The translations under genes were made by a program, and so were the position numbers. 64,000 nt of DNA. Source: Candidatus Undinarchaeota archaeon. GTDB lineage: Archaea > Undinarchaeota > Undinarchaeia > Undinarchaeales > UBA543. This document shows, piece by piece, positions 8,324 to 63,130 of this stretch. The DNA lies in the NCBI GenBank assembly GCA_964636545.1, contig CAZWSR010000001.1, positions 102,821 to 166,820 on the forward strand. Direction: 5' to 3'. The notes under the pieces were generated by a model, which was given only the letters and a program-made list of their open reading frames with translations, had not been told where the DNA came from and made no database searches. Numbering within the stretch: the first letter of the stretch is position 1; every line of letters starts with the position of its first letter.

Positions 8324-8608
8324 ATGGGGATAGGAATTTACTTCTTTGCAGGAGTGGCGATAGTAGTTGCTGTTTTAGCTTATTTAATATATTTTCAAAA
8401 GGACCCATTTAAGGTTATTACAAAGCATCCAAGCTTATCAGGAAGGATTGAGCCGATAAAACCAAGTGGGAAAGAATCAGCACCAGTAACTGGTGTTTGT
8501 GGAATGTGTGGCGACCAGGTGACAATGCCGTTTAAGTGTAAATTCTGTAAAGGGCTTTATTGTGAGAATCATCGGTTGCCTGAAGATCATGATTGTGACG
8601 GGGTTTAG
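8324..8608 (+). CDS. Membrane-anchored AN1-type zinc finger protein
   Basis: N-terminal TM; CGMC...PFKCKFCKGLYCENHRLPEDHDC. Confidence 0.85.
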   Translation: MGIGIYFFAGVAIVVAVLAYLIYFQKDPFKVITKHPSLSGRIEPIKPSGKESAPVTGVCGMCGDQVTMPFKCKFCKGLYCENHRLPEDHDCDGV

Positions 8609-8633
8609 CTTGGATAACGAATTTAGTTACTTT

Positions 8634-8693
8634 GGTATCGGCTGTCAGCCCTCAGCAGTCAGGGCCTGATGGCTGAATGCTGACACCTTAACC
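8634..8693. repeat. Palindromic heptamer-repeat element (nnnTCAG / CTGAnnn family), no cargo
   Basis: GGTATCG GCTGTCA GCCCTCA GCAGTCA GGGC CTGATGG CTGAATG CTGACAC CTTAACC; CTGACACCTTAAC (8680-8692) is identical to 62703-62715. Confidence 0.85.
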
Positions 8694-8763
8694 AATAGGG
8701 CAAACCTTTATATACCAAATACACTACTCCAAAGTAGTGACAAACGTCACTGGTGGTTAAAAA

Positions 8764-9609
8764 ATGGTTATGTGGATGCTCATAGCAATACCAATAATTC
8801 TCGTGTTCGGAGGACTAGGACTTATTGTAAAGTCTCCAAAGAATCTTATTCTTGGAAAAGTTTTGTTTGAATTTAAGGAATATGAACGAGGAGTTATCTA
8901 CAGATTCGGTAAATACCATCGTGTTGCAGAACCTGGATGGAAATTTATTATACCAGTTATTGAGAGTTTTATCAAGTACGATCTTCGTACTGAAACAATT
9001 GACATTCCACCACAATCAGTTATCACACGCGACGCAGTTAAATTAAATATTGACGCTATTATTTATCTTAGAGTTGACGATCCAGTAAAAGCAGAACTTT
9101 ATGTTGAAGAAGATTACAGAAAGGCAATTGAAGAGCACGTAAAAGGTCGTATTCGTAACCTTGTCGGAAGCATGGAACTTGATGAACTTTATGGAAAAAT
9201 TGACACAGTTAACAAACAGCTCAGAGAAGATGTTCAGAAACTCGCAATTGAGTGGGGCGTAATGATTGTTAACGTGGAACTTATCTCAGTTGCACCGCCA
9301 CAGCAAATGGTTGATGCAATGCAAGCAGAAGAAATTGCAGAGAGATACAAACGTGCAGAAATGCAGACAGCAGAAACAACCAAGATTAGAATTGGCGCAA
9401 TTGAAGAAGCTGCTGGAAAATTGTCAACTCCTGCTTTGAATTATCTTTACATAAAAGCATTGAAAGATATGGCAGACGGCAGAGCAACAAAGATTGTGTT
9501 CCCAATGGAGCTTACAAAAGCAGTTGAGAAACTTGCTGGTGGGCTTGGTGGAAAAGACAAATCAGATCTTGCAAGCACTGCAGAAAAGCTATTGGAGAGA
9601 ATCAAATAA
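8764..9609 (+). CDS. SPFH/band 7 (stomatin-like) protein
   Basis: EYERGVIYRFG, DLRTETIDIPPQSVITRD, EWGV; N-terminal TM. Confidence 0.92.
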   Translation: MVMWMLIAIPIILVFGGLGLIVKSPKNLILGKVLFEFKEYERGVIYRFGKYHRVAEPGWKFIIPVIESFIKYDLRTETIDIPPQSVITRDAVKLNIDAIIYLRVDDPVKAELYVEEDYRKAIEEHVKGRIRNLVGSMELDELYGKIDTVNKQLREDVQKLAIEWGVMIVNVELISVAPPQQMVDAMQAEEIAERYKRAEMQTAETTKIRIGAIEEAAGKLSTPALNYLYIKALKDMADGRATKIVFPMELTKAVEKLAGGLGGKDKSDLASTAEKLLERIK

Positions 9610-9614
9610 AGTTT

Positions 9615-9686
9615 TTTAGAGTTTAGATTTTGGAATTTAGAATTTAGAGTACTCCAAATTCTAAACTCTTAATTCCAAATTCCATT
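9615..9686. repeat. Palindromic heptamer-repeat element (TTTRGAN family)
   Basis: TTTAGAG TTTAGAT TTTGGAA TTTAGAA TTTAGAG TA CTCCAAA TTCTAAA CTCTTAA TTCCAAA TTCCATT. Confidence 0.9.
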
Positions 9687-17331: not shown

Positions 17332-18153
17332 ATGAACACAAAAATCCTTTACTGGACCAAGAATCCAGCAGCTCAGAATATTATGAAACAGTTTAATGAG
17401 CTTGGAGTAGATGTAGAAGTTTTTGAAACAGAGAAGGATTTTTTGTATTTGACTGATGAGGATATTAACGGGGCGCAGGGGCGCAGGGGCGCAGGGGCTC
17501 AGACTGATTTATTGATATTTCCAAGCACGCACAAGAGCGCTGCAAATAAAAAGTCATTAACTATTCACGCTACAGGTAATTTTGGGAATGCTGATTATGG
17601 TGGAGAGCCAAAGAAATTGAATCCAACAAGTTCTGAGGCGATTGCAATAGGACTACGCAGTATGGCGAATCAGGCACTAGGTAGTAGGCAGGGGGCAGTA
17701 GGTTTTGAAGTTTGTTTGGAAGTAACACATCATGGACCGACAATTAAAACTCCGTTAGTTTTTATTGAAATTGGTTCAACTGAAGAAGAATGGGGAAATG
17801 TGGAAGCTGGGAAGGTTATTGCAAATGCTATTAAGGATATTATTGAATACCTCAAACCCCCAACCCCAAACCCCAAACCTTTCACAAACTACATCGGCTT
17901 CGGCGGTCCTCACTATGCACCAAGCTTTACAAAAAAAATTATTGAAAATGAGAATATTGCAATTGGCCATATTTTGCCAAAATATCAGCAAGATAATGTT
18001 ACTAAAGATATTATTCAGCAAATGTTAGATGGAAGTAATGCAAAGAAAGCTGTTTTTGATTGGGATGGAATGAATTCTGAGCAGAGGAATAAGGCTGTTG
18101 GGATTTTAGATGAGTTGGGGATTGAGTGGTGTAAGACAAAGGAATTAGTTTAA
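17332..18153 (+). CDS. dtdA: D-aminoacyl-tRNA deacylase (archaeal DTD2 type) with three repeat-derived insertions
   Basis: STHKS, LTIHATGN, EVTHHGPT, FIEIGSTEEEW, GFGGPHY, GHILPKY. Confidence 0.93.
   Translation: MNTKILYWTKNPAAQNIMKQFNELGVDVEVFETEKDFLYLTDEDINGAQGRRGAGAQTDLLIFPSTHKSAANKKSLTIHATGNFGNADYGGEPKKLNPTSSEAIAIGLRSMANQALGSRQGAVGFEVCLEVTHHGPTIKTPLVFIEIGSTEEEWGNVEAGKVIANAIKDIIEYLKPPTPNPKPFTNYIGFGGPHYAPSFTKKIIENENIAIGHILPKYQQDNVTKDIIQQMLDGSNAKKAVFDWDGMNSEQRNKAVGILDELGIEWCKTKELV
17470..17504 (+). repeat. In-frame octamer tract in dtdA
   Basis: GGGGCGCA x3 + GGGGCTCA GAC, encoding GAQGRRGAGAQ. Confidence 0.9.
17672..17703 (+). repeat. In-frame heptamer tract in dtdA
   Basis: AGGCACT AGGTAGT AGGCAGG GGGCAGT AGG. 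Confidence 0.75.
17850..17880 (+). repeat. In-frame heptamer tract in dtdA
   Basis: CCTCAAA CCCCCAA CCCCAAA CCCCAAA, encoding LKPPTPNPKP. Confidence 0.75.
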
Positions 18154-23070: not shown

Positions 23071-25788
23071 TTATTCCCCCTGTGGTGGCTTTTCTGGCTG
23101 TTCAACAGGAACTTCTTGGGGACTGTCAAGATTTGGCACATCAAGGTTTTCAATTGGTGTTTCAGTAGGTGCTTCAGGTTCTAGATTGGGTAATTCAAGT
23201 GGAATGTCTTCAAGCATTGGCTCATTTGATTCTTCCACTGCCTCCTGCCCACTGCCTTCTGCCTCGTCTTCTATAATTTCTTCCATCTTTGGCTCTTCAA
23301 CTTCTTTTTCTGCAATCTCGTCATTCGTTCCAATTTCAATTCCAACAAGTTTGGAAGTGCCATCTGATTGCATTGAAACACCGAATAGGCGCTCTGCATT
23401 TCTGACAACAGAATTATTGTGACTGATAATTAGAAGTTGGGATTTTTTTGCTCGCTCTTGCATTAAAGTGACGAATCGCATTGAGTTTGCTTGGTCAAGA
23501 GCAGCATCAACTTCGTCAAGAACATAAAATGGGGATGGTTTGTAGCTCTGGAGAGCAATTAAGAATGCTAATGCAGTCATTGTTTTTTCACCACCAGACA
23601 AGGAATCAATACTGAGAATCTTTTTTCCAGCTGGTTTTGCTTCAACAAACAATCCGCTTGCTAGTGGATCTTCTGGATCTTCAATTATTAAACGAGCTTC
23701 TCCCTCAGGTGAAAGTTTTGGGAAAACTTGTGAAAATTCTTCTCCGACCTTGTTGAAAACTTCAAAGAAAACTTCCTTTTTACGTTTTTCAATATCTTCA
23801 ATAAAGTCAATAATGGAATTGCGCTCACTCTTGAGAGTATTGAATTTTTCTTCAAATACTTGGAATTCTTTCATGTGCTGACCATACAGTTCAATTGCTT
23901 TCATATTCACTGGCTCAAGTTTTATGACATTATTGTTAACTTTGATTAAGCGCTCATCCATTTTTTCAATGTCGCCTTCTTCAAAGTCCATATCCTTGAA
24001 CTTCTCCATGTTCAGGCGAATGTCAGTGAGTTTTGCATCAATTTGCGCTTTTTCAATTCTAATATCAGAAATTTTGCGGGTTGCGGATTCTTTTTGAAGG
24101 CGAACTTGATCACATTTTTCTCTGAGCTTGTCAATTTCCAAATCAAGAACTTCAGAATCTCTCTGCATAGATTCCATTGTGTTTCCAACTTCCTTGTCCT
24201 TTTTCAAATAATCTTCATATTCTTTTTTGAGTGCCTCGTTACTGAGTGAAAGATCTTCAATTTCATCAAGGAGCTTGTCTCTGGTTTTGACATATTCCTC
24301 AATTTCTGAACCTGAACCTTTCTTTCCTCTTTTCTGAGATCCGCCACTAATTGATCCAGCTCTTTCTGCAATATCACCAAGAAGAGAAACCATTCTGATT
24401 TTACCAATGTGTGATTTTACTTTGTCAATATCTTCAACAATGTGAGTATTTCCAAAAGCGTATTGGAAGGCTTTATCGAATTTGCTGTCGTATTTCACAA
24501 GATTAAGTGCAAGTCCGATAATTCCAGCCCCATTTGTTTCCCTGATTTCTTTTGGTGGTTGGATTTTGTTGAGCGGGAGGAAAGTTGCGCGACCCATGCT
24601 GTTTTCTCTAAGGAAATTAACGCACTTGATTGCAGTATCGTCACTGTCAACAATCACAAAATGACTTCGTTTTCCAAGAGAATTTTCAATTGCACTTGCA
24701 TATTTTGCATCGTGAGTCATTAATTCAGAAACTGTTCCATGAATTCCTTCAATTTCTGATTTGAGATTGGAAATAAATCGTGCAGGAGTTGAACTGCGGG
24801 CTTGCAGGTTTGAGACCATCCCATCTATTCTTGAAATTTCAGATTGTTTGCTCTCTATTTTGCTTTCGTTAATTGAAATTCGGCCTTTAATGCGCTCTGC
24901 TTCGAATTTGACACCGACTTGCTCTGTGCTACCTTCGTGAATGAGCTTGGTATCAATTCCTTTTTTGCGTGATTGTTTTTCAGTGAGCTTGTTGTTGATA
25001 TCTGAAAATTCAGATGCAAATTTCTGCTCTTCTGTTTGTTCTAAACTTATTTTTTCCTGAATTTTGGATTCAATTACTTCTGCGTTTTTTAATTTAGTAA
25101 ATGCTAATTGTCCTTCAAGCCCAGCTGCCTCATCTTTGAGTGCTTTGTATTTTTCAGCATCTTCTTTTTCTTTCCTTAGTGATTCTACATGCTTTTTGCG
25201 CTCAGACATCACAATTACAATTTCTTTTATGTGAACTTCAACTGCACCAAGATCTTTCTGTGCTTTGTCTCGCTTTTCATCGTATTCTGAAATTCCACAG
25301 ATTTCATCAAGAACTTGTCTTCGGCCAAATGGGTCCATTTCAATGAAGTTCGTGACATCTCCTTGCAAGACAATGTTGTGACCACTGGCCTTGAACATGT
25401 GAGAAGAAAGAAGGTCAACCATTTGCTGTTTTGTGCATTTTTGGTTATTGACTTTGTAAGACATTGTACCGTTTCTGGTGAGACGGCGAGTTACGCGGAC
25501 TTCGTCATTTTCAAAAGGTAGTTCTCGCTTTTTGTTATCTAAAACTAGAGTGACTTCCATAGCAGTGGCTGGTGGATTACCTTTGCCCCCGTTGTAGATG
25601 AGATGCGCAAGCCGTTCTGCCCTCATTGAGCGTGCAGATGAACGCCCAAGAACAAAACAGATGGAGTCACAAATGTTTGACTTTCCAGAACCATTTGGTC
25701 CAACGAATGCTGTTAGGCCTTCGGAAAGCGGGATAACGACCTTCTTGTTGAAGGATTTGAAGCCCTGCATCTCTAAGCTCTTAATCAC
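23071..25788 (-). CDS. smc: SMC protein with short arms and an acidic C-terminal tail
   Basis: GFKSF, GPNGSGKSN, VLQGD, hinge GRATFLPL, LSGGEK, LDEVDAALD, ISH. Confidence 0.95.
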   Translation of the reverse strand: MIKSLEMQGFKSFNKKVVIPLSEGLTAFVGPNGSGKSNICDSICFVLGRSSARSMRAERLAHLIYNGGKGNPPATAMEVTLVLDNKKRELPFENDEVRVTRRLTRNGTMSYKVNNQKCTKQQMVDLLSSHMFKASGHNIVLQGDVTNFIEMDPFGRRQVLDEICGISEYDEKRDKAQKDLGAVEVHIKEIVIVMSERKKHVESLRKEKEDAEKYKALKDEAAGLEGQLAFTKLKNAEVIESKIQEKISLEQTEEQKFASEFSDINNKLTEKQSRKKGIDTKLIHEGSTEQVGVKFEAERIKGRISINESKIESKQSEISRIDGMVSNLQARSSTPARFISNLKSEIEGIHGTVSELMTHDAKYASAIENSLGKRSHFVIVDSDDTAIKCVNFLRENSMGRATFLPLNKIQPPKEIRETNGAGIIGLALNLVKYDSKFDKAFQYAFGNTHIVEDIDKVKSHIGKIRMVSLLGDIAERAGSISGGSQKRGKKGSGSEIEEYVKTRDKLLDEIEDLSLSNEALKKEYEDYLKKDKEVGNTMESMQRDSEVLDLEIDKLREKCDQVRLQKESATRKISDIRIEKAQIDAKLTDIRLNMEKFKDMDFEEGDIEKMDERLIKVNNNVIKLEPVNMKAIELYGQHMKEFQVFEEKFNTLKSERNSIIDFIEDIEKRKKEVFFEVFNKVGEEFSQVFPKLSPEGEARLIIEDPEDPLASGLFVEAKPAGKKILSIDSLSGGEKTMTALAFLIALQSYKPSPFYVLDEVDAALDQANSMRFVTLMQERAKKSQLLIISHNNSVVRNAERLFGVSMQSDGTSKLVGIEIGTNDEIAEKEVEEPKMEEIIEDEAEGSGQEAVEESNEPMLEDIPLELPNLEPEAPTETPIENLDVPNLDSPQEVPVEQPEKPPQGE
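23236..23263 (-). repeat. In-frame heptamer tract in the SMC tail
   Basis: Coding strand GGCAGAA GGCAGTG GGCAGGA GGCAGTG. Confidence 0.65.
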
Positions 25789-25831
25789 TGTGAAATAGTA
25801 TAGCGCCTAGTGTATTTAAGAGTTTTGTCAA

Positions 25832-25902
25832 AATGGAGTTTGGAGTTTAGAATTTAGAGTTTAGAGTAACTCCAAATTCCAAAATCTAAATTCTAAATTC
25901 TA
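25832..25902. repeat. Palindromic heptamer-repeat element (TTTRGAN family) overlapping the aspS stop
   Basis: AATGGAG TTTGGAG TTTAGAA TTTAGAG TTTAGAG TAA CTCCAAA TTCCAAA ATCTAAA TTCTAAA TTCTA. Confidence 0.9.
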
Positions 25903-27207
25903 CGGAGTTAATCTCTTAGCATCTCTTGGGAACAAAACAGCTTCCCGTACATTTGGCAAGCCAAGCATGACCATAACCAATCTGTCAACACCAATAGCCC
26001 AGCCAGCATGTGGCGGCATTCCGTATTTGTAAAACTCAATTGTTGATTCAAAGCCCTTTGGATTCATGCCTTTTGATTTCAAACCAGCAATGTACATGTC
26101 AGGATCGTGGATTCTGCGGCCACCTGAAGCTAATTCCATTCCTTCAAAAATTAAATCAAATCCGTATGATAGTTTTTTGTCTTTCTCATGTGGGTGGATG
26201 TAGTACGGTTTTTGCTCCATTGGCATTTCAGAAACTATCACAGGCCCTTTGTAAAGTTCTTGAATTATTCTCTCTCCCTCAGGTGGGATGTCCTCACCCC
26301 ATTTTAGTTTAAGTCCTTTGCCTGCAATTTGTTTTAGAATTTCAGTATAAGTTTTCACAACCATTTTCTTTGGCTGAGTAAGTGTGACTTTGAGGGTTTC
26401 AAGTTCTTTTTTGCAATTCTTTGCAACATCTGAGTAAATTCGCTTTAGGATGCCTTCTGCAACTGACCAAGTTGCTGTTTCATCAACAAAACCCATTTCA
26501 ATATCAAGTTGTGTTACTTCTGCTAAATGTTGAGTTGTGTCAGATGGTTCTGCGCGGAATACCTGACCAATTTCAAATACTTTTTCAAAACAAGATGTCA
26601 TTAATTCTTTGTAGATTTGCGGGCTTTGTCGCAAAAATGCTTCTTTATCAAAATAATTAATTGGGAAAAGTTCTGCACCACCTTCTGTGGCGCTTGCAAT
26701 CATTTTTGGTGTCTCAATTTCGCGGAAATCGCCTTCAGTTAGGTAATCGCGAGCTGATTTAAGAACTTGAGCGCGAATTGCGAAAATTGCCGATATTCGT
26801 GGTTTTCGGAGGTCAAGAACACGTGCGTCAAGGCGTGTGTCAAGCTCTGCCAAAACCTTCTCATTTACTTCAAGTGGTAGTGGTGTTTTGGACTTGTTTA
26901 GCAAAAGAATGTCGTCCAGGATGACTTCAACGCCCCTGTTTGTCTTATCTGTCTTTTTTACTGTTCCTTTTACTGCGACAGCAGACTCTCGTGTGATTTC
27001 TGAGAGTTTTTCAAAGGCCTTTGGTGCATTTTTCTTAAGAACCGTTACTTGAGCATCGCCTTCGCGGTCTGCAAGAACTAGAAAAGCTAGGTTTCCGTGG
27101 AGGCGAACGTCTCGCAACCAACCCATTAATGTTACTTTTTTCCCATCTAGAGCTGGAACTATTTCATTAGTGAAGTGTGTTTTAGTCCAGTTGGATAGTG
27201 AGTCCAT
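25900..27207 (-). CDS. aspS: Aspartate-tRNA ligase, archaeal type
   Basis: RLDARVLDLR, ATEGGAELF, QSPQIYK, FRAE, PPHAGWAIGVDR, LFPRD. Confidence 0.93.
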   Translation of the reverse strand: MDSLSNWTKTHFTNEIVPALDGKKVTLMGWLRDVRLHGNLAFLVLADREGDAQVTVLKKNAPKAFEKLSEITRESAVAVKGTVKKTDKTNRGVEVILDDILLLNKSKTPLPLEVNEKVLAELDTRLDARVLDLRKPRISAIFAIRAQVLKSARDYLTEGDFREIETPKMIASATEGGAELFPINYFDKEAFLRQSPQIYKELMTSCFEKVFEIGQVFRAEPSDTTQHLAEVTQLDIEMGFVDETATWSVAEGILKRIYSDVAKNCKKELETLKVTLTQPKKMVVKTYTEILKQIAGKGLKLKWGEDIPPEGERIIQELYKGPVIVSEMPMEQKPYYIHPHEKDKKLSYGFDLIFEGMELASGGRRIHDPDMYIAGLKSKGMNPKGFESTIEFYKYGMPPHAGWAIGVDRLVMVMLGLPNVREAVLFPRDAKRLTP

Positions 27208-32748: not shown

Positions 32749-32782
32749 CATCAGCTATCGGCTAACAGCCAACAGCTATCAA
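32749..32782 (+). repeat. Single heptamer arm immediately 3' of tRNA-iMet
   Basis: CATCAG CTATCGG CTAACAG CCAACAG CTATCAA. Confidence 0.8.
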
Positions 32783-52569: not shown

Positions 52570-53928
52570 TTACTTTTTCCGCTCATGCAATTTCATATGC
52601 CCTTTTTGGATTCCTTCAGTTGTAATTGCTTTTAATGCAGCGAAGTTTTGTGCAAGGCCTGCTGCTGCCATTACTTGAGCAAGTTCTTGAGCTGATTTTA
52701 CACCCAAGATTTTGAGATTTACTTGAGCTTGTGGGTGTTTTGTTGAACCGCCGACTGTGGCGACTGCTAGTGGTAATTCAATAGAGGCCTTTAAGTCATT
52801 GTTTCCTGTTAGTTCGTAGTGAGTTAATGGTTTGTAGGATGGAGTGTGGATTGTAGAGTGTAGAGTGTGGACTTCGCCTCCACGCCGCCCCGGCGCACCT
52901 GCGCCCCCTGAAACACTAGCATAGGCATGCGCTCCTGCTTCTACTGCTCGCCAGTCATTGCCAGTTGCTATGCAGATTGCTGAAATTGCATTCATTATTC
53001 CCTTGTTGTGAGTTGCTGCGCGGTATGGATCTACTTCTGCAACTTGATTTGCTTTGATGATGAGGTTGATTGTTTGTTCACTGAGGAGTTCTTTTTTGAA
53101 AACACACTCTGCTCTTGCTAATCGGCGGTCTGCTAAGTTGGAAACTATCTTTAGAACGGCTTTTCCACCAAGTTCTTCCAGTTTTGGAGCAATTGCTTCA
53201 ACCATTGTATTGACTATGTTGGCACCCATTGCATCTTTGCAGTCTACGTATAGGTGGATTCTGATGATTTGGGCAGTGGGCAGTGGGCAGTGGGTTGTAG
53301 GTGAGGATTCGTTATTTTCAGGCGCCTCTACGGCGCCCCGGCGCCCCGGATCCACAGGTAAAATATCAACAGAGAGATCTTTTGCACCGCCACCTAAGTT
53401 AATGAGTGTTGGGTTTTTTGAATTTGCTATTGTGAGAAGTTCCTGCTTCATATTTAGAATGTGTTGCACTACGTTCTCTTGCTCCTGGTTCAGGGTAGTG
53501 GGTAGTGGGCAGTGGGCAGTAGGAGAAGATTTGTTATTTTCGTTCTGAGCCCCTGAGCCCCTGAGCCCCGGCGCCCCGAATAAATGTATTTGCCCAATCA
53601 TTATTGAATCATCTGCTGAAGTTTTGAATCCACCACATTCGCGAGCAAGTTTTGCAGAGTTTGATGCAGCTGCAACTACTGAAGGTTCTTCAAGAACCAT
53701 TGGAATAATGTAATCTTTGTTATTTATTAGGAAATTTACAGCTACCCCGATTGGTAGTGAGAAATTTCCAATAACATTTTCAATTAATTTTTCTGAAAAA
53801 TCAGTTACACTAGGAAAATTTTTCAGTGTTTCTGCTTCTGCATCAGTTAATTCAGCAAATTCTTTAATAAAATTAAGTCGCTCTTCAGGTGAGCGTTCGT
53901 AAAATTTTGAAACTCTTGAAGTTTTCAT
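52570..53928 (-). CDS. mvaA: HMG-CoA reductase, class II, with three repeat-derived insertions
   Basis: ENVIG, EEPSVVAAAS, DAMGAN, THNKGIMN, GNDWRA, GIQKGHMKLH. Confidence 0.95.
   Translation of the reverse strand: MKTSRVSKFYERSPEERLNFIKEFAELTDAEAETLKNFPSVTDFSEKLIENVIGNFSLPIGVAVNFLINNKDYIIPMVLEEPSVVAAASNSAKLARECGGFKTSADDSIMIGQIHLFGAPGLRGSGAQNENNKSSPTAHCPLPTTLNQEQENVVQHILNMKQELLTIANSKNPTLINLGGGAKDLSVDILPVDPGRRGAVEAPENNESSPTTHCPLPTAQIIRIHLYVDCKDAMGANIVNTMVEAIAPKLEELGGKAVLKIVSNLADRRLARAECVFKKELLSEQTINLIIKANQVAEVDPYRAATHNKGIMNAISAICIATGNDWRAVEAGAHAYASVSGGAGAPGRRGGEVHTLHSTIHTPSYKPLTHYELTGNNDLKASIELPLAVATVGGSTKHPQAQVNLKILGVKSAQELAQVMAAAGLAQNFAALKAITTEGIQKGHMKLHERKK
52840..52908 (-). repeat. In-frame octamer + heptamer insert 3 in HMG-CoA reductase
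   Basis: + strand TGGAGTG TGGATTG TAGAGTG TAGAGTG TGGACTT ... CGGCGCAC CTGCGCCC. Confidence 0.85.
53271..53349 (-). repeat. In-frame octamer + heptamer insert 2 in HMG-CoA reductase
   Basis: + strand GGGCAGT x3 GGGTTGT, spacer, CGGCGCCC x2. Confidence 0.9.
53493..53578 (-). repeat. In-frame octamer + heptamer insert 1 in HMG-CoA reductase
   Basis: + strand GGGTAGT x2 GGGCAGT x2, spacer, CTGAGCCC x3 CGGCGCCC. Confidence 0.9.
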
Positions 53929-55502: not shown

Positions 55503-55520
55503 GATATACAACCCCCTTTT

Positions 55521-55561
55521 GTCTGAGCCCCTGGGCCCCGGCGCCCCGGTGCCCCTGAACC
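55521..55561 (-). repeat. Intergenic octamer arm
   Basis: GT CTGAGCCC CTGGGCCC CGGCGCCC CGGTGCCC CTGAACC. Confidence 0.88.
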
Positions 55562-55572
55562 AATTTCACAAA

Positions 55573-61693: not shown

Positions 61694-62196
61694 TGGCAAA
61701 ACGAGTTTGGTTTAGCAAAGAGAAATTCAAACTAATGTTTGATGATCAAGTAAACGAATATACAAGTTTAGGAGGCAATTTTTTCTATGGTTTCTTATTT
61801 TTCATTACTTTTGCACTAGGTTACACTGCAGAAATGCCTGAGATGATGGATGCTGCGCGCGTTCTTCTGATTGCAGGAATCTTGTTTACTATTGTCGGTT
61901 TTGGATTGAAATACGTTGTTGGAAGAACAAGACCAAATAAAGTTAGTTTAAGATGGGCAAGTGCAATGGAAAGAATGAATGATGCATCGTTCCCAAGCAT
62001 ACATTCTGGACGAGCAGTTATAATTGCATATACTTTTGGGCATTTATTGCCAAGTTTTGGAAAGCTTATTTTCTGGATAATAATGTTGGGGGTTCCATTA
62101 ACAAGAGTTTATTTGAAAAAACACTTTTGGAGCGACATTATTGCAGGGGTGTTATTTGGATTTTTGATTGCTTACGGCGTGAGATTGGTGATATAG
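61693..62196 (+). CDS. PAP2-family membrane phosphatase
   Basis: K...RTRP, SFPSIH, TRVYLKKHFWSD. Confidence 0.9.
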   Translation: MAKRVWFSKEKFKLMFDDQVNEYTSLGGNFFYGFLFFITFALGYTAEMPEMMDAARVLLIAGILFTIVGFGLKYVVGRTRPNKVSLRWASAMERMNDASFPSIHSGRAVIIAYTFGHLLPSFGKLIFWIIMLGVPLTRVYLKKHFWSDIIAGVLFGFLIAYGVRLVI

Positions 62197-62715
62197 GTTA
62201 AGGTATCAGCAGTCGGCCCTCAGCCCTCGGGTCAGAATAACTGGAAGACTGCATTATACATCTGGCATTTTCTTAATAAAACTGTATGTCATTTTTGCAA
62301 GACACTCAATTTCTTCTTTTAAGACAAGATGTGTTTCTTTTGGAATATATCCTAAATCACGAGCTAAAAGCAGATGATAATCAAGTTCTTTTATAGAATG
62401 ATAAGAATAAAATAAATATCTTCTGGCTGCAGGAGTTGTGTTTTGACCACAACCTTCAACAATATTTGTAGGAATTGATGCACTTGACCGTCTTATTTGA
62501 TCAATCAACCGATATCTCTCTTTGGAAGGAAATGTATCCACGAGTTTATCTAATTTTAATACAAGATTATGAGCTTTTTTCCAAATAATTAATTCTGTAT
62601 AATCTCTTGTCATAAATTTATCATGCCGATATCCTCTTTATAAAAATTTGTAAACTCGCTTGAGTTGGTGGCTATTGTCACCTGACGGCTGAGGGCTGAT
62701 ACCTGACACCTTAAC
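62196..62715. mobile_element. Putative element: four-helix-bundle gene bracketed by inverted heptamer-repeat arms
   Basis: Left arm 62196-62235 and right arm 62682-62715 are inverted (27/34 by hand); perfect terminal GTTAAGGT/ACCTTAAC; mobility is inferred only. Confidence 0.55.
62254..62613 (-). CDS. Four-helix-bundle protein (23S rRNA IVS protein / Avd-like family)
   Basis: LIIWKKA...FPSKERYRLIDQIRRSSASIPTNIVEG...ELDYHLLLARDLGY. Confidence 0.92.
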   Translation of the reverse strand: MTRDYTELIIWKKAHNLVLKLDKLVDTFPSKERYRLIDQIRRSSASIPTNIVEGCGQNTTPAARRYLFYSYHSIKELDYHLLLARDLGYIPKETHLVLKEEIECLAKMTYSFIKKMPDV

Positions 62716-62741
62716 AAATATAAACAACTACTACTATACAC

Positions 62742-63059
62742 ATGTATAGAAAAATGAATGAAAAAACCCTAAAACAACGGAATTTGATTTTGCGAACCAT
62801 GGCGAAAGCGCGAGCAGAAGATGGTTTAGAGTTTTTGTGGCTAAGGGAATTAACTAGACGGACTGGTTTGAATATGGGAACAGTTGGCTGGGTTTTGCAC
62901 AGATACTTATCACCAGATTATATTGAATTTCCTGAAGTAGATGCACTGATACAGCACGGTTTGAAGATCCGTCCAATTAAATTAAAGGACAAAATTTATG
63001 AGCAAATGATTGGGAAAGCAACGAAGAAAGAAGGAAAATCAGAAGTAAAAGCAGAGTAA
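62742..63059 (+). CDS. Winged-helix-like DNA-binding protein
   Basis: LWLRELTRRTGLNMGTVGWVLHRYL. Confidence 0.65.
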   Translation: MYRKMNEKTLKQRNLILRTMAKARAEDGLEFLWLRELTRRTGLNMGTVGWVLHRYLSPDYIEFPEVDALIQHGLKIRPIKLKDKIYEQMIGKATKKEGKSEVKAE

Positions 63060-63130
63060 AAACCCGACCACCATAACCTATTTAACTACTAAAATTCAAC
63101 AAAAAGTAACGATAACTAGAGGGGATTATA

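Follow-up and report, generated by a model that had tools for sequence, protein, structure and literature searches.

Two genes of a compact archaeal genome, one for an AN1-type zinc-finger protein and one for an SPFH/Band 7 protein, are separated by a spacer that holds a 60-bp palindrome built of 7-nt units, and the locus raises the question of what this palindrome is and where it came from. It occupies positions 8634-8693 of the window, a stretch of 64,000 nucleotides from a Candidatus Undinarchaeota archaeon (GenBank assembly GCA_964636545.1, contig CAZWSR010000001.1; C1:102821-166820 in the contig numbering used here). The assembly comprises 840 kb in 39 contigs and is 83% complete, and its host is archaeal, with large-subunit (LSU) and small-subunit rRNA matches of 1739 and 837 bits, respectively. 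A sequence-only reading had taken the palindrome as a cargo-less copy of the inverted arms that enclose a four-helix-bundle (4HB) gene some 54 kb away. The analysis reported here favors, with a probability of about 0.6, a related view: that 8609-8705 is a gene-less copy, resembling a miniature inverted-repeat transposable element (MITE), of an element family with arms of 7-nt units (heptads), the full-length form of which carries a 4HB gene between its arms.

The hairpin at 8634-8693 and its family

The 60-bp stretch is an imperfect, non-coding palindrome of nnnTCAG / CTGAnnn units, with sequence and inverted arms as first described. The nnnTCAG units of the left arm (8634-8663, + strand; GGTATCG GCTGTCA GCCCTCA GCAGTCA GG) converge on the junction TCAGG-G-CCTGA, seen at 8659-8669, from which the CTGAnnn units of the right arm (8665-8693, + strand) lead outward to the terminus CTGACACC-TTAAC. 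The right arm holds one unit fewer than most copies, which appears as a 7-nt gap in the alignment. Inverted arms were detected at 8643-8663/8665-8685 (21 nt, 81% complementary, 1 nt apart) and at 8634-8655/8666-8687 (22 nt, 77% complementary). The 13-mer CTGACACCTTAAC at 8680-8692 is identical to 62703-62715, and GGTATC and GCCCTCAGC are present in the distant left arm at 62199-62223, both in agreement with the sequence-only reading. Taken alone the 13-mer is weak evidence, since, when up to two mismatches are allowed, its 3 occurrences exceed an expectation of 1.25 but are equalled or exceeded in 14 of 100 shuffles.

A regular expression that required three or more units of the form TC[AG]G or C[TC]GA, spaced 7 nt apart, matched 44 arrays in the 840 kb, distributed over 30 sites, and in five shuffles it matched 0, 0, 2, 0 and 1; the further copies for which a genome search had been proposed clearly exist. 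The arrays form 14 left-right pairs, 13 of which are gene-less, enclose a loop of 3-16 nt and have the arm junction TCAGG-N-CCTGA in common; the remaining pair encloses 451 nt with the 4HB gene. Nineteen gene-less copies, made up of 12 regex pairs and 7 'solo' sites where both arms were found on inspection, align over arms, unit order and non-repeat ends, and define an element of ~85-105 nt. Left out of this alignment were the 4HB element, C1:8251 (different unit type) and the solo arrays at C1:29515, C1:30018, C3:57500, C3:65943, C4:17703, C5:3383, C7:747, C7:27324 and C9:5622.

The family layout runs in its 5' half from a stop codon through an A-rich stretch, AGGTRTCAG and three further nnnTCAG units to G-N-C, and in its 3' half through three to four CTGAnnn units (often CCGAGGG, at a fixed place) to CTGAYACC and TTAACCAA. 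Copies follow closely on stop codons and mostly point the way transcription runs, and the 8634 copy has a stable predicted RNA fold. The conserved family ends are AGGTRTCAG ... CTGAYACC-TTAACCAA, and the motif ACCTTAAMCMA occurs at 17 genomic sites, 14 of them directly behind a CTGA-type arm. The 8634 copy belongs here by its arms and junction as well as by its ends and unit order; its right end is the exact family end, and its left end is degenerate, with TTGGTATCGG where the family has AGGTRTCAG. Its homology, which takes in the ends, extends to at least 18 further gene-less copies and to the arms of the 4HB element at 62.2-62.7 kb.

That element is the one gene-bearing member. Its left arm (62197-62239, + strand) begins at the stop codon of a PAP2 gene, and its right arm (62673-62716, + strand) ends in CTGACACCTTAAC; the arms extend over 55 nt with 76% complementarity and 433 nt between them. 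The cargo gene (62254-62613, - strand) encodes a 119-aa 4HB protein that matches PF05635 and TIGR02436 with E-values of 8.5e-32 and 2.6e-30, and the only solved structure related to it by sequence is PDB 2GSC, XCC0516 of Xanthomonas (E 3.3e-16). Upstream of the cargo gene, a mini-hairpin, AAACTCnnnnGAGTT, and an A/T-rich TATA-like box were identified by eye, unscored, at 62633-62666 (- strand). Across the archaeal order, the region ahead of the 4HB genes (loci L001-L003 and L025-L041) shows conservation of a mini-hairpin of the form (T)AAACTC-nnnn-GAGTT(A), followed by an A-rich stretch and TTTATAAA, and the conserved mini-hairpin is likely part of a promoter, as an operator-like hairpin.

The proposal of a cargo-less copy of the 4HB arms stands in so far as both loci belong to one homologous family; the special one-to-one link between them does not. 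The nearest relatives of the 8634 copy are gene-less copies, seven of which outscore the 4HB arms, which tie for 8th-11th place (score 37) among 19 comparisons, and the shared 13-mer is the family end. At the level of the family, the proposal of a non-autonomous derivative of MITE or repetitive extragenic palindrome (REP) type is borne out by the regex arrays, the 19-copy alignment and the one gene-bearing member.

The insertion and its neighbors in related genomes

The hairpin lies 26 nt past the stop codon of the AN1 gene (8324-8608, + strand; 94 aa, PF01428, E 4.9e-12), in its 3' untranslated stretch, and 71 nt ahead of the SPFH/Band 7 gene (8764-9609, + strand; 281 aa, PF01145, E 2.1e-41). 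AN1-SPFH synteny was found in nine relatives, and in none of the eight readable spacers (two congeners and six distant relatives; the ninth is interrupted by an N gap) was a 4HB gene or a hairpin present. The spacer measures 155 nt in this genome, 71 nt in congener G001 and 98 nt in congener G002, and is shorter still in most others. In G001 and G002, which belong to the same genus with SPFH identities of 86-90%, the AN1 stop codon is followed by ~13-14 nt and then by the conserved TATA-type promoter of the SPFH gene, versus ~97 nt at the same place here. The whole inserted unit (8609-8705, + strand; ~97 nt, bounds +/-10 nt) is made up of the heptad hairpin with, on its 5' side, a flank that contains TTGGATAA and, behind it, the tail ACC-TTAACCAA-TAGGGCAAAC. 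The non-repeat part of this tail, TTAACCAA and TAGGGCAAAC at 8688-8705 (+ strand), is conserved in the family and contains a Shine-Dalgarno-like AGGAC module, degenerate in this copy. The promoter and leader of the SPFH gene (8706-8763, + strand), conserved in the congeners, are intact despite the insertion.

The 8634 copy is an insertion that neither congener shares. The absence of the hairpin, and likewise of a 4HB gene, from the spacers of congeners and distant relatives indicates a lineage-specific insertion and not an excision footprint, which had been offered as one possible origin; a 4HB gene between AN1 and SPFH, as a footprint would predict in relatives, was found in 0 of 9, one spacer being N-gapped. 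Metagenomes from seawater and hydrothermal vents contain near-identical sequence, and none of the 22 runs listed with it is an RNA run. Contigs from four runs of four studies span the hairpin and match it without a difference; in the natural population sampled, the copy is fixed.

The window has colinear counterparts in contigs G001:C8 and G002:C7, at 69-84% identity, and neighboring sites differ among the congeners by gain, loss and cargo or no-cargo state. The PAP2 spacer (62196-62742), occupied in this genome by the TCAG arms with the 4HB gene, holds a TCAG-type hairpin without a gene in G001 and a solo array of another type in G002. In the next spacer (63060-63130), both G001 and G002 carry a 4HB element and this genome has an arm-like start only; these 71 nt open with AAACCCGACCACCATAACC, which aligns to the outer right-arm end of the G001 and G002 element, and the spacer may be a deletion remnant. 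At the MetAP-like/PAP2 junction (61693), the genes abut in this genome and in G001, and a complete 71-nt heptad hairpin of the GGTATCAGG type is present in G002. Directly past the SPFH stop codon, a second heptad hairpin, with units of another type (GARTTT / AAAYTC; 9614-9684, + strand), is matched in G001 by other-type arms round ~110 nt and in G002 by nothing. The hairpin at 25830-25905 is replaced by other sequence in G001 and has no counterpart in G002.

Four-helix-bundle genes and heptad arrays

The TCAG family is one of several heptad types in this genome. Among 1772 tandem arrays found by TRF, period 7 is the second commonest (279 arrays), with many arrays head to head. A scan for ungapped palindromes of at least 16 pairs and a loop of at most 14 nt gave 43 hits, 36 of them heptad-periodic; two are N runs (C7:10070-10169 and C20:4698-4797), scaffold gaps scored as perfect palindromes, an artefact to be dropped from the count. 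A lag-k scan that required 16 or more matches in 21 positions and excluded low complexity found 120 arrays at lag 7, against 2, 17, 29, 23, 4 and 2 at lags 5, 6, 8, 9, 10 and 11. The short 8634 copy was missed by this strict detector and was recovered by the palindrome scan (C1:111463-111505) and the unit regex. The 120 arrays merge to 103 loci, so that ~100 heptad loci of several unit types (GARTTT, GGYAGT, SGTT, GGGGATC-like and TCAG) coexist, and about one gene gap in nine of the ~0.84-Mb genome carries a heptad array. Crude open reading frames (ORFs) cover 90.5% of the genome; for 77 of the 120 arrays the greater part is intergenic, and 27 of the 103 loci fall within a crude ORF.

Heptads also occur in other settings. 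Arrays within ORFs were observed at 17846-17885, 23237-23265, 52836-52876, 53264-53304 and 53486-53526, with units in multiples of three. At 17846-17885, G001 is shorter than this genome and G002 by 21 nt, which amount to three units or seven codons and keep the frame, and at 52836 different heptads stand at the same place in G001; such in-frame arrays imply that heptads also make peptide linkers of 7 residues. Solo one-arm arrays adjoin tRNA genes at 32749-32781 and C1:93218-93255, where the junctions in G001 and G002 are 0-10 nt. Chimeric loci with non-complementary arms of differing unit type (C10:1660-1732, C14:4045-4117, C1:30544-30635, C5:19664-19745 and C5:41849-41945) fit recombination between elements or independently made arms. 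A G+C-rich heptad-like stretch at 55512-55572 (GCCCCTG GGCCCCG GCGCCCC GGTGCCCC) lies in a spacer that measures 14 nt in G001 and 0 in G002. A selected, locus-specific stem was also considered and found unsupported, since same-locus arms pair no better than arms from other loci of the same type.

The link to the 4HB gene extends beyond the element at 62.2-62.7 kb. This genome has four PF05635 genes; every one lies between inverted heptad arms, and the unit type of the arms differs from gene to gene. Across the archaeal order, PF05635 was found in 7 of 13 genomes (24 matches). Among 21 loci of the order, the similarity between flanks was greater in inverted than in direct orientation at 20, and strict lag-7 arrays were detected at 13 (on both flanks at 5), against 0, 2 and 1 loci at lags 6, 8 and 9. 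One locus, L041 (G010:C18), has a 4HB gene flanked by arrays of 8-nt units (GACTCGNN).

The same pairing of a 4HB gene with heptad arms is present in many bacteria. Sampling one genome per species gave 80 loci, 74 of them with both flanks, from Bacteroidota, Chloroflexota, Cyanobacteria, Planctomycetota, Verrucomicrobiota, Acidobacteriota and others. Lag-7 arrays were found at 58 of the 74 (on both flanks at 29), compared with 0, 2 and 0 at lags 6, 8 and 9. The near flanks carried arrays in 40/68 and 42/68 cases versus 4/68 and 1/68 for far flanks of equal size. Inverted similarity exceeded direct similarity at 59 of the 74 loci, the opposite held at 14 and one was a tie; an inverted score of at least 14 was reached by 51/74 loci against 21/150 cross-locus controls. 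The bacterial unit types match the archaeal ones (AGGTATC..., nnnTCAGC / GCTGAnnn). The 14 loci with direct flanking arrays include L072, L073, L085, L086, L090, L104 and L118. At L072, AGGAGG stands between an upstream CTGA-type array and the 4HB match, 22 nt ahead of the latter, a layout similar to that of gene-less archaeal hairpins with a Shine-Dalgarno-like tail and start codon. Strand polarity was compared as well: the 5' arm is G/T-rich in 34 of 36 heptad palindromes of the archaeal genome, and in the bacterial loci the polarity is weak (upstream arrays G/T-rich in 24/42, downstream arrays A/C-rich in 33/45), for which reason 'telomere-like healing' was dropped as a general model.

Gene and arrays also co-occur at the level of whole genomes. 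Lag-7 arrays were counted in sampled DNA of the 13 archaeal genomes, which as kin are non-independent and of which some samples, at 45-130 kb, are small. The genome under study (G000; four PF05635 genes) has 16.6 arrays per 100 kb, G001 (three) 8.0, G002 (two) 4.5, G005 (three) 11.7, G007 (two) 9.2, G010 (nine; contigs picked irrespective of the gene) 13.9 and G008 (one, weak) 3.6. Among the genomes with no PF05635 match, G003 has 1 array in 77.6 kb, and none was found in G004 (60 kb), G006 (50.6 kb), G009 (45.3 kb), G012 (45 kb) or G011 (7.5 kb). The seven genomes with the gene range from 3.6 to 16.6 arrays per 100 kb, against 1 array in the ~286 kb sampled from the six without it. The split is clean across the order and recurs within one genus, to which both G010 and the 98%-complete G003 belong.

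Competing explanations and known systems

The reading of the 8634 copy as a MITE-like derivative is drawn from the shared arms, the flanking of 4HB genes at 4/4 own and most foreign loci, and the genome-level co-occurrence. Several results weigh against it. Y1_Tnp, the TnpB zinc ribbon and RVT_1 have 0 matches in the 83%-complete assembly, and no catalytic activity is known for the 4HB family. No target duplication was recognizable on comparison of filled and empty sites, where diverged flanks place the bounds to ~10 nt only, and no empty-site alleles or joints were seen in contigs of the four metagenomes, a weak negative since contigs drop rare variants. The most abundant unit types, GARTTT and GGYAGT, are without a gene-bearing copy in this assembly; at 13 loci of the GARTTT type, the own right arm pairs worse than most foreign right arms (14.3 versus 18.2). 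RNAalifold of the 19 TCAG copies gave no compensatory changes, pairing being kept at the invariant TCAG:CTGA cores only. The solo, chimeric and in-gene arrays suggest that arrays themselves are made or extended by some process, in addition to the copying of whole hairpins. Derivation could also have run in either direction, by loss of the gene from the arms or by insertion of the gene into a hairpin.

The last point leads to the most probable alternative, in which the hairpins came first: another process would spread heptad hairpins, a 4HB cassette with its own promoter and mini-hairpin would home into their loops, and the 8634 copy would be a primary form. Such an order of events would account for the excess of ~100 array loci over four 4HB genes and for the two abundant unit types that lack a gene-bearing copy, and the gene-less TCAG-type hairpin of G001 sits exactly at the site of the arms and gene in this genome. 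Passages of two papers also report 23S_rRNA_IVP genes as scattered insertions (PMC11270868, PMC3936711). However, the four 4HB proteins of this genome are only 33-50% identical to one another and each has its own unit type, so they are not recent hops of a single cassette. Moreover, arm units diverge with the protein (1.66 mismatches at 70% protein identity or more, ~3 below 55%), and genomes without the gene are also without hairpins, which a generator independent of the gene does not predict. On balance this order of events is considered unlikely. The same mismatch figures were examined for a protein-to-arm 'code'; arm units follow protein identity only from 70% upward, which reflects co-inheritance and is not evidence of recognition.

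A host regulatory structure is more doubtful again. The hairpins would then be selected as 3'-end stabilizers, as punctuation or an insulator between AN1 and SPFH or as protein-binding arrays, and would be repetitive by common function. Their placement agrees with this: TCAG copies lie 0-12 nt behind stop codons, and in 12/19 a Shine-Dalgarno-like GGA(C/T/A)AAA and an ATG follow within 10 nt downstream (a TATA-like box is found downstream in four others, the 8634 copy included; C14_6690 was placed in neither group). By manual reading of crude ORF calls, 16/19 copies agree in orientation with both flanking ORFs. The predicted RNA fold of 8620-8705 is stable, with an energy of -33.8 kcal/mol where shuffled sequences average -21.5 (z -3.64, 0/200 shuffles as stable), the 8634 copy is unchanged in four metagenomes, and bacterial heptamers are read as regulatory in parts of PMC4692102 and PMC4679880. 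Yet the hairpin is missing at this site from both congeners and the six readable distant relatives (one further spacer has the N gap), the unit types differ among congeners at the same site, and there is no covariation among the 19 copies, which leaves selection on the stem unproven. No T-run follows the stem, which gives way at 8694-8705 to CAATAGGGCAAA, the stem being followed by TTAACCAATAGGGCAAAC; the hairpin is thus not a terminator of the bacterial or archaeal kind. A host role is compatible with mobility, and the two are not exclusive.

Far less probable is an excision or deletion footprint of a former 4HB element between AN1 and SPFH. One family member does have cargo between the same kind of arms, and 63060-63130 looks remnant-like where G001 and G002 keep a 4HB element. 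In the nine syntenic relatives (one with the N gap), however, the site has neither 4HB gene nor arms; the tail of the 8634 copy is closer to intercistronic gene-less copies such as C6_32523 (TTAACCAATAGGACAAAC) than to that of the 4HB element; and the common TCAGG-N-CCTGA junction of 13 gene-less pairs is explained most simply if the gene-less form multiplied. A local origin by heptanucleotide slippage or expansion on both strands, with no transfer of sequence, is scarcely credible: unit number varies among copies, lone arrays and in-gene arrays in multiples of three units exist and variable unit positions are non-complementary between arms, but non-repeat ends and unit order are common to 19 copies and the congeners have no seed repeat at the site.

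If the 8634 copy is a MITE-like derivative, it most likely arrived by copy-and-paste from another gene-less copy, a source indicated by its tail TTAACCAATAGGGCAAAC, which nearly equals the Shine-Dalgarno-like tail of intercistronic copies. Movement would depend on factors supplied in trans; the candidate, and the only one visible, is the 4HB protein of the family, an Avd relative, proposed on the grounds of co-occurrence. The solo, chimeric and in-gene arrays suggest that making or extending arrays in 7-nt steps may be part of the process, and the 7-nt register would belong to the family and to the 4HB-linked system across bacteria, not to the 8634 site. RNA co-transcribed with AN1 is predicted to form a ladder of 4-bp TCAG:CTGA rungs split by small internal loops, and the folded element would probably serve as a 3'-end or punctuation structure with little or mild consequence for the host.

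The closest known systems include MITEs such as the Correia elements, and REPs with their REP-associated tyrosine transposases (RAYT) and the bacterial interspersed mosaic elements (BIMEs). Like them, the family consists of short, non-coding, multicopy palindromes with inverted repeats at the ends, in post-gene gaps, with an orientation bias and a presence that varies among close relatives, and a longer gene-carrying relative exists. Unlike them, the longer relative has no known transposase: its only gene is the PF05635 gene, so a transposase-coding parent with the same ends, as expected of a MITE, is lacking, and a cognate Y1 transposase (IS200/IS605-like, RAYT-type), as expected of REP/BIME, has 0 matches in the assembly, 83% complete as it is. 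The arms are also internally periodic, several unit types coexist, and no target duplication was seen. Avd, a nucleic-acid-binding protein, is the accessory 4HB protein of diversity-generating retroelements. The cargo protein is a distant sequence relative, its match to model NF033474 (E 9.4e-5, 22.7 bits) being far under the model cut-off of 80 bits; unlike Avd systems, the genome has no reverse transcriptase match (RVT_1, 0 matches) and no template/variable repeat pair.

The intervening sequences (IVSs) of 23S rRNA in Leptospira and Coxiella carry an 'S23p' or 23S_rRNA_IVP ORF of the PF05635 family. As in these, the archaeal element at 62197-62716 has a PF05635 gene between inverted repeats able to pair as a long stem, gene-bearing and gene-less forms coexist (the 8634 copy being gene-less) and the distribution is patchy and mobile-looking. 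In contrast to an IVS, which is inserted in a 23S rRNA helix and removed from it, both window elements sit between protein genes, and the arms are made of 7-nt units. RNase III, considered as a processing enzyme, has 0 matches in this assembly. Passages of the literature on 23S_rRNA_IVP describe it as functionally uncharacterised in rRNA insertion sequences of candidate phyla radiation (CPR) bacteria (PMC11270868) and as scattered inserts between cas genes (PMC3936711), and those passages do not mention heptads.

Heptameric repeats are known from bacteria, the cyanobacterial short tandemly repeated repetitive (STRR) sequences among them. In the parts of the two sources drawn on here, GGGNATC heptamers are described from Xanthomonas and Nostoc, with 70-75 arrays per Xanthomonas genome that form convergent pairs and are transcribed (Rehm et al. 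2015, PMC4692102), and TAACTGA repeats just 5' of start codons from Beggiatoaceae, Cyanobacteria and Bacteroidetes (MacGregor 2015, PMC4679880). In those parts, the 7-nt units form arrays of 2-6 or more, mostly intergenic, <50 bp from stop codons or just upstream of starts, and are interpreted as G-quadruplex formers or translational-regulator sites, with no link to mobile elements stated (PMC4692102, PMC4679880). This genome likewise has intergenic 7-nt arrays near stop and start codons, often in convergent pairs, and GGGGATC-type and CTGA-type units known from the bacterial heptamers. It differs from the published bacterial cases in its archaeal host and in the tie of the arrays to a 4HB gene. 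PMC4679880 nowhere uses the terms 'helix bundle', 'intervening sequence' or 'S23', and the 4HB family goes unmentioned in the outline and passages of PMC4692102, where no term search was made. No paper linking PF05635 or TIGR02436 to heptamer repeats was found in the literature searched, which covers subscription journals incompletely.

A broader idea is put forward tentatively, as a possibility that may well fail. The 4HB '23S rRNA IVS protein' could be the signature gene of cross-domain selfish elements with inverted arms of 7-nt units, and the bacterial GGGNATC, TAACTGA and STRR repeats and the ~100 archaeal hairpins could be its gene-less offspring or by-products, an oligomer of the 4HB protein recognizing, copying or extending arrays in 7-nt steps. 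If true, DNA would move here with no need of a known transposase or reverse transcriptase. The 8634 hairpin alone is one more repeat copy; the wider comparison ties together the 4HB protein of rRNA IVSs, the bacterial heptanucleotide repeats and the palindromes in post-gene gaps of a compact archaeal genome, which are treated separately in the literature searched. Were the link causal, it would provide a role for the PF05635 family, which has thousands of members and a solved structure and no function, and it would point to a new way in which DNA moves or repeats arise. Arrays of this kind reshape intercistronic regions, bring Shine-Dalgarno-like tails and add 7-residue linkers within proteins.

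Searched at Rfam gathering thresholds, the whole window gave two tRNAs only, and the hairpins were unmatched. The LSU rRNA pieces of this assembly cover model positions 155-2163 within 1954-1956 nt and contain no large insert of the IVS kind over this assembled part. They lie on two near-identical contigs, C27 and C28 (L175 and L176), both of which match positions 155-2163, with scores of 1725 and 1739 bits, and are strain variants or an assembly duplicate.

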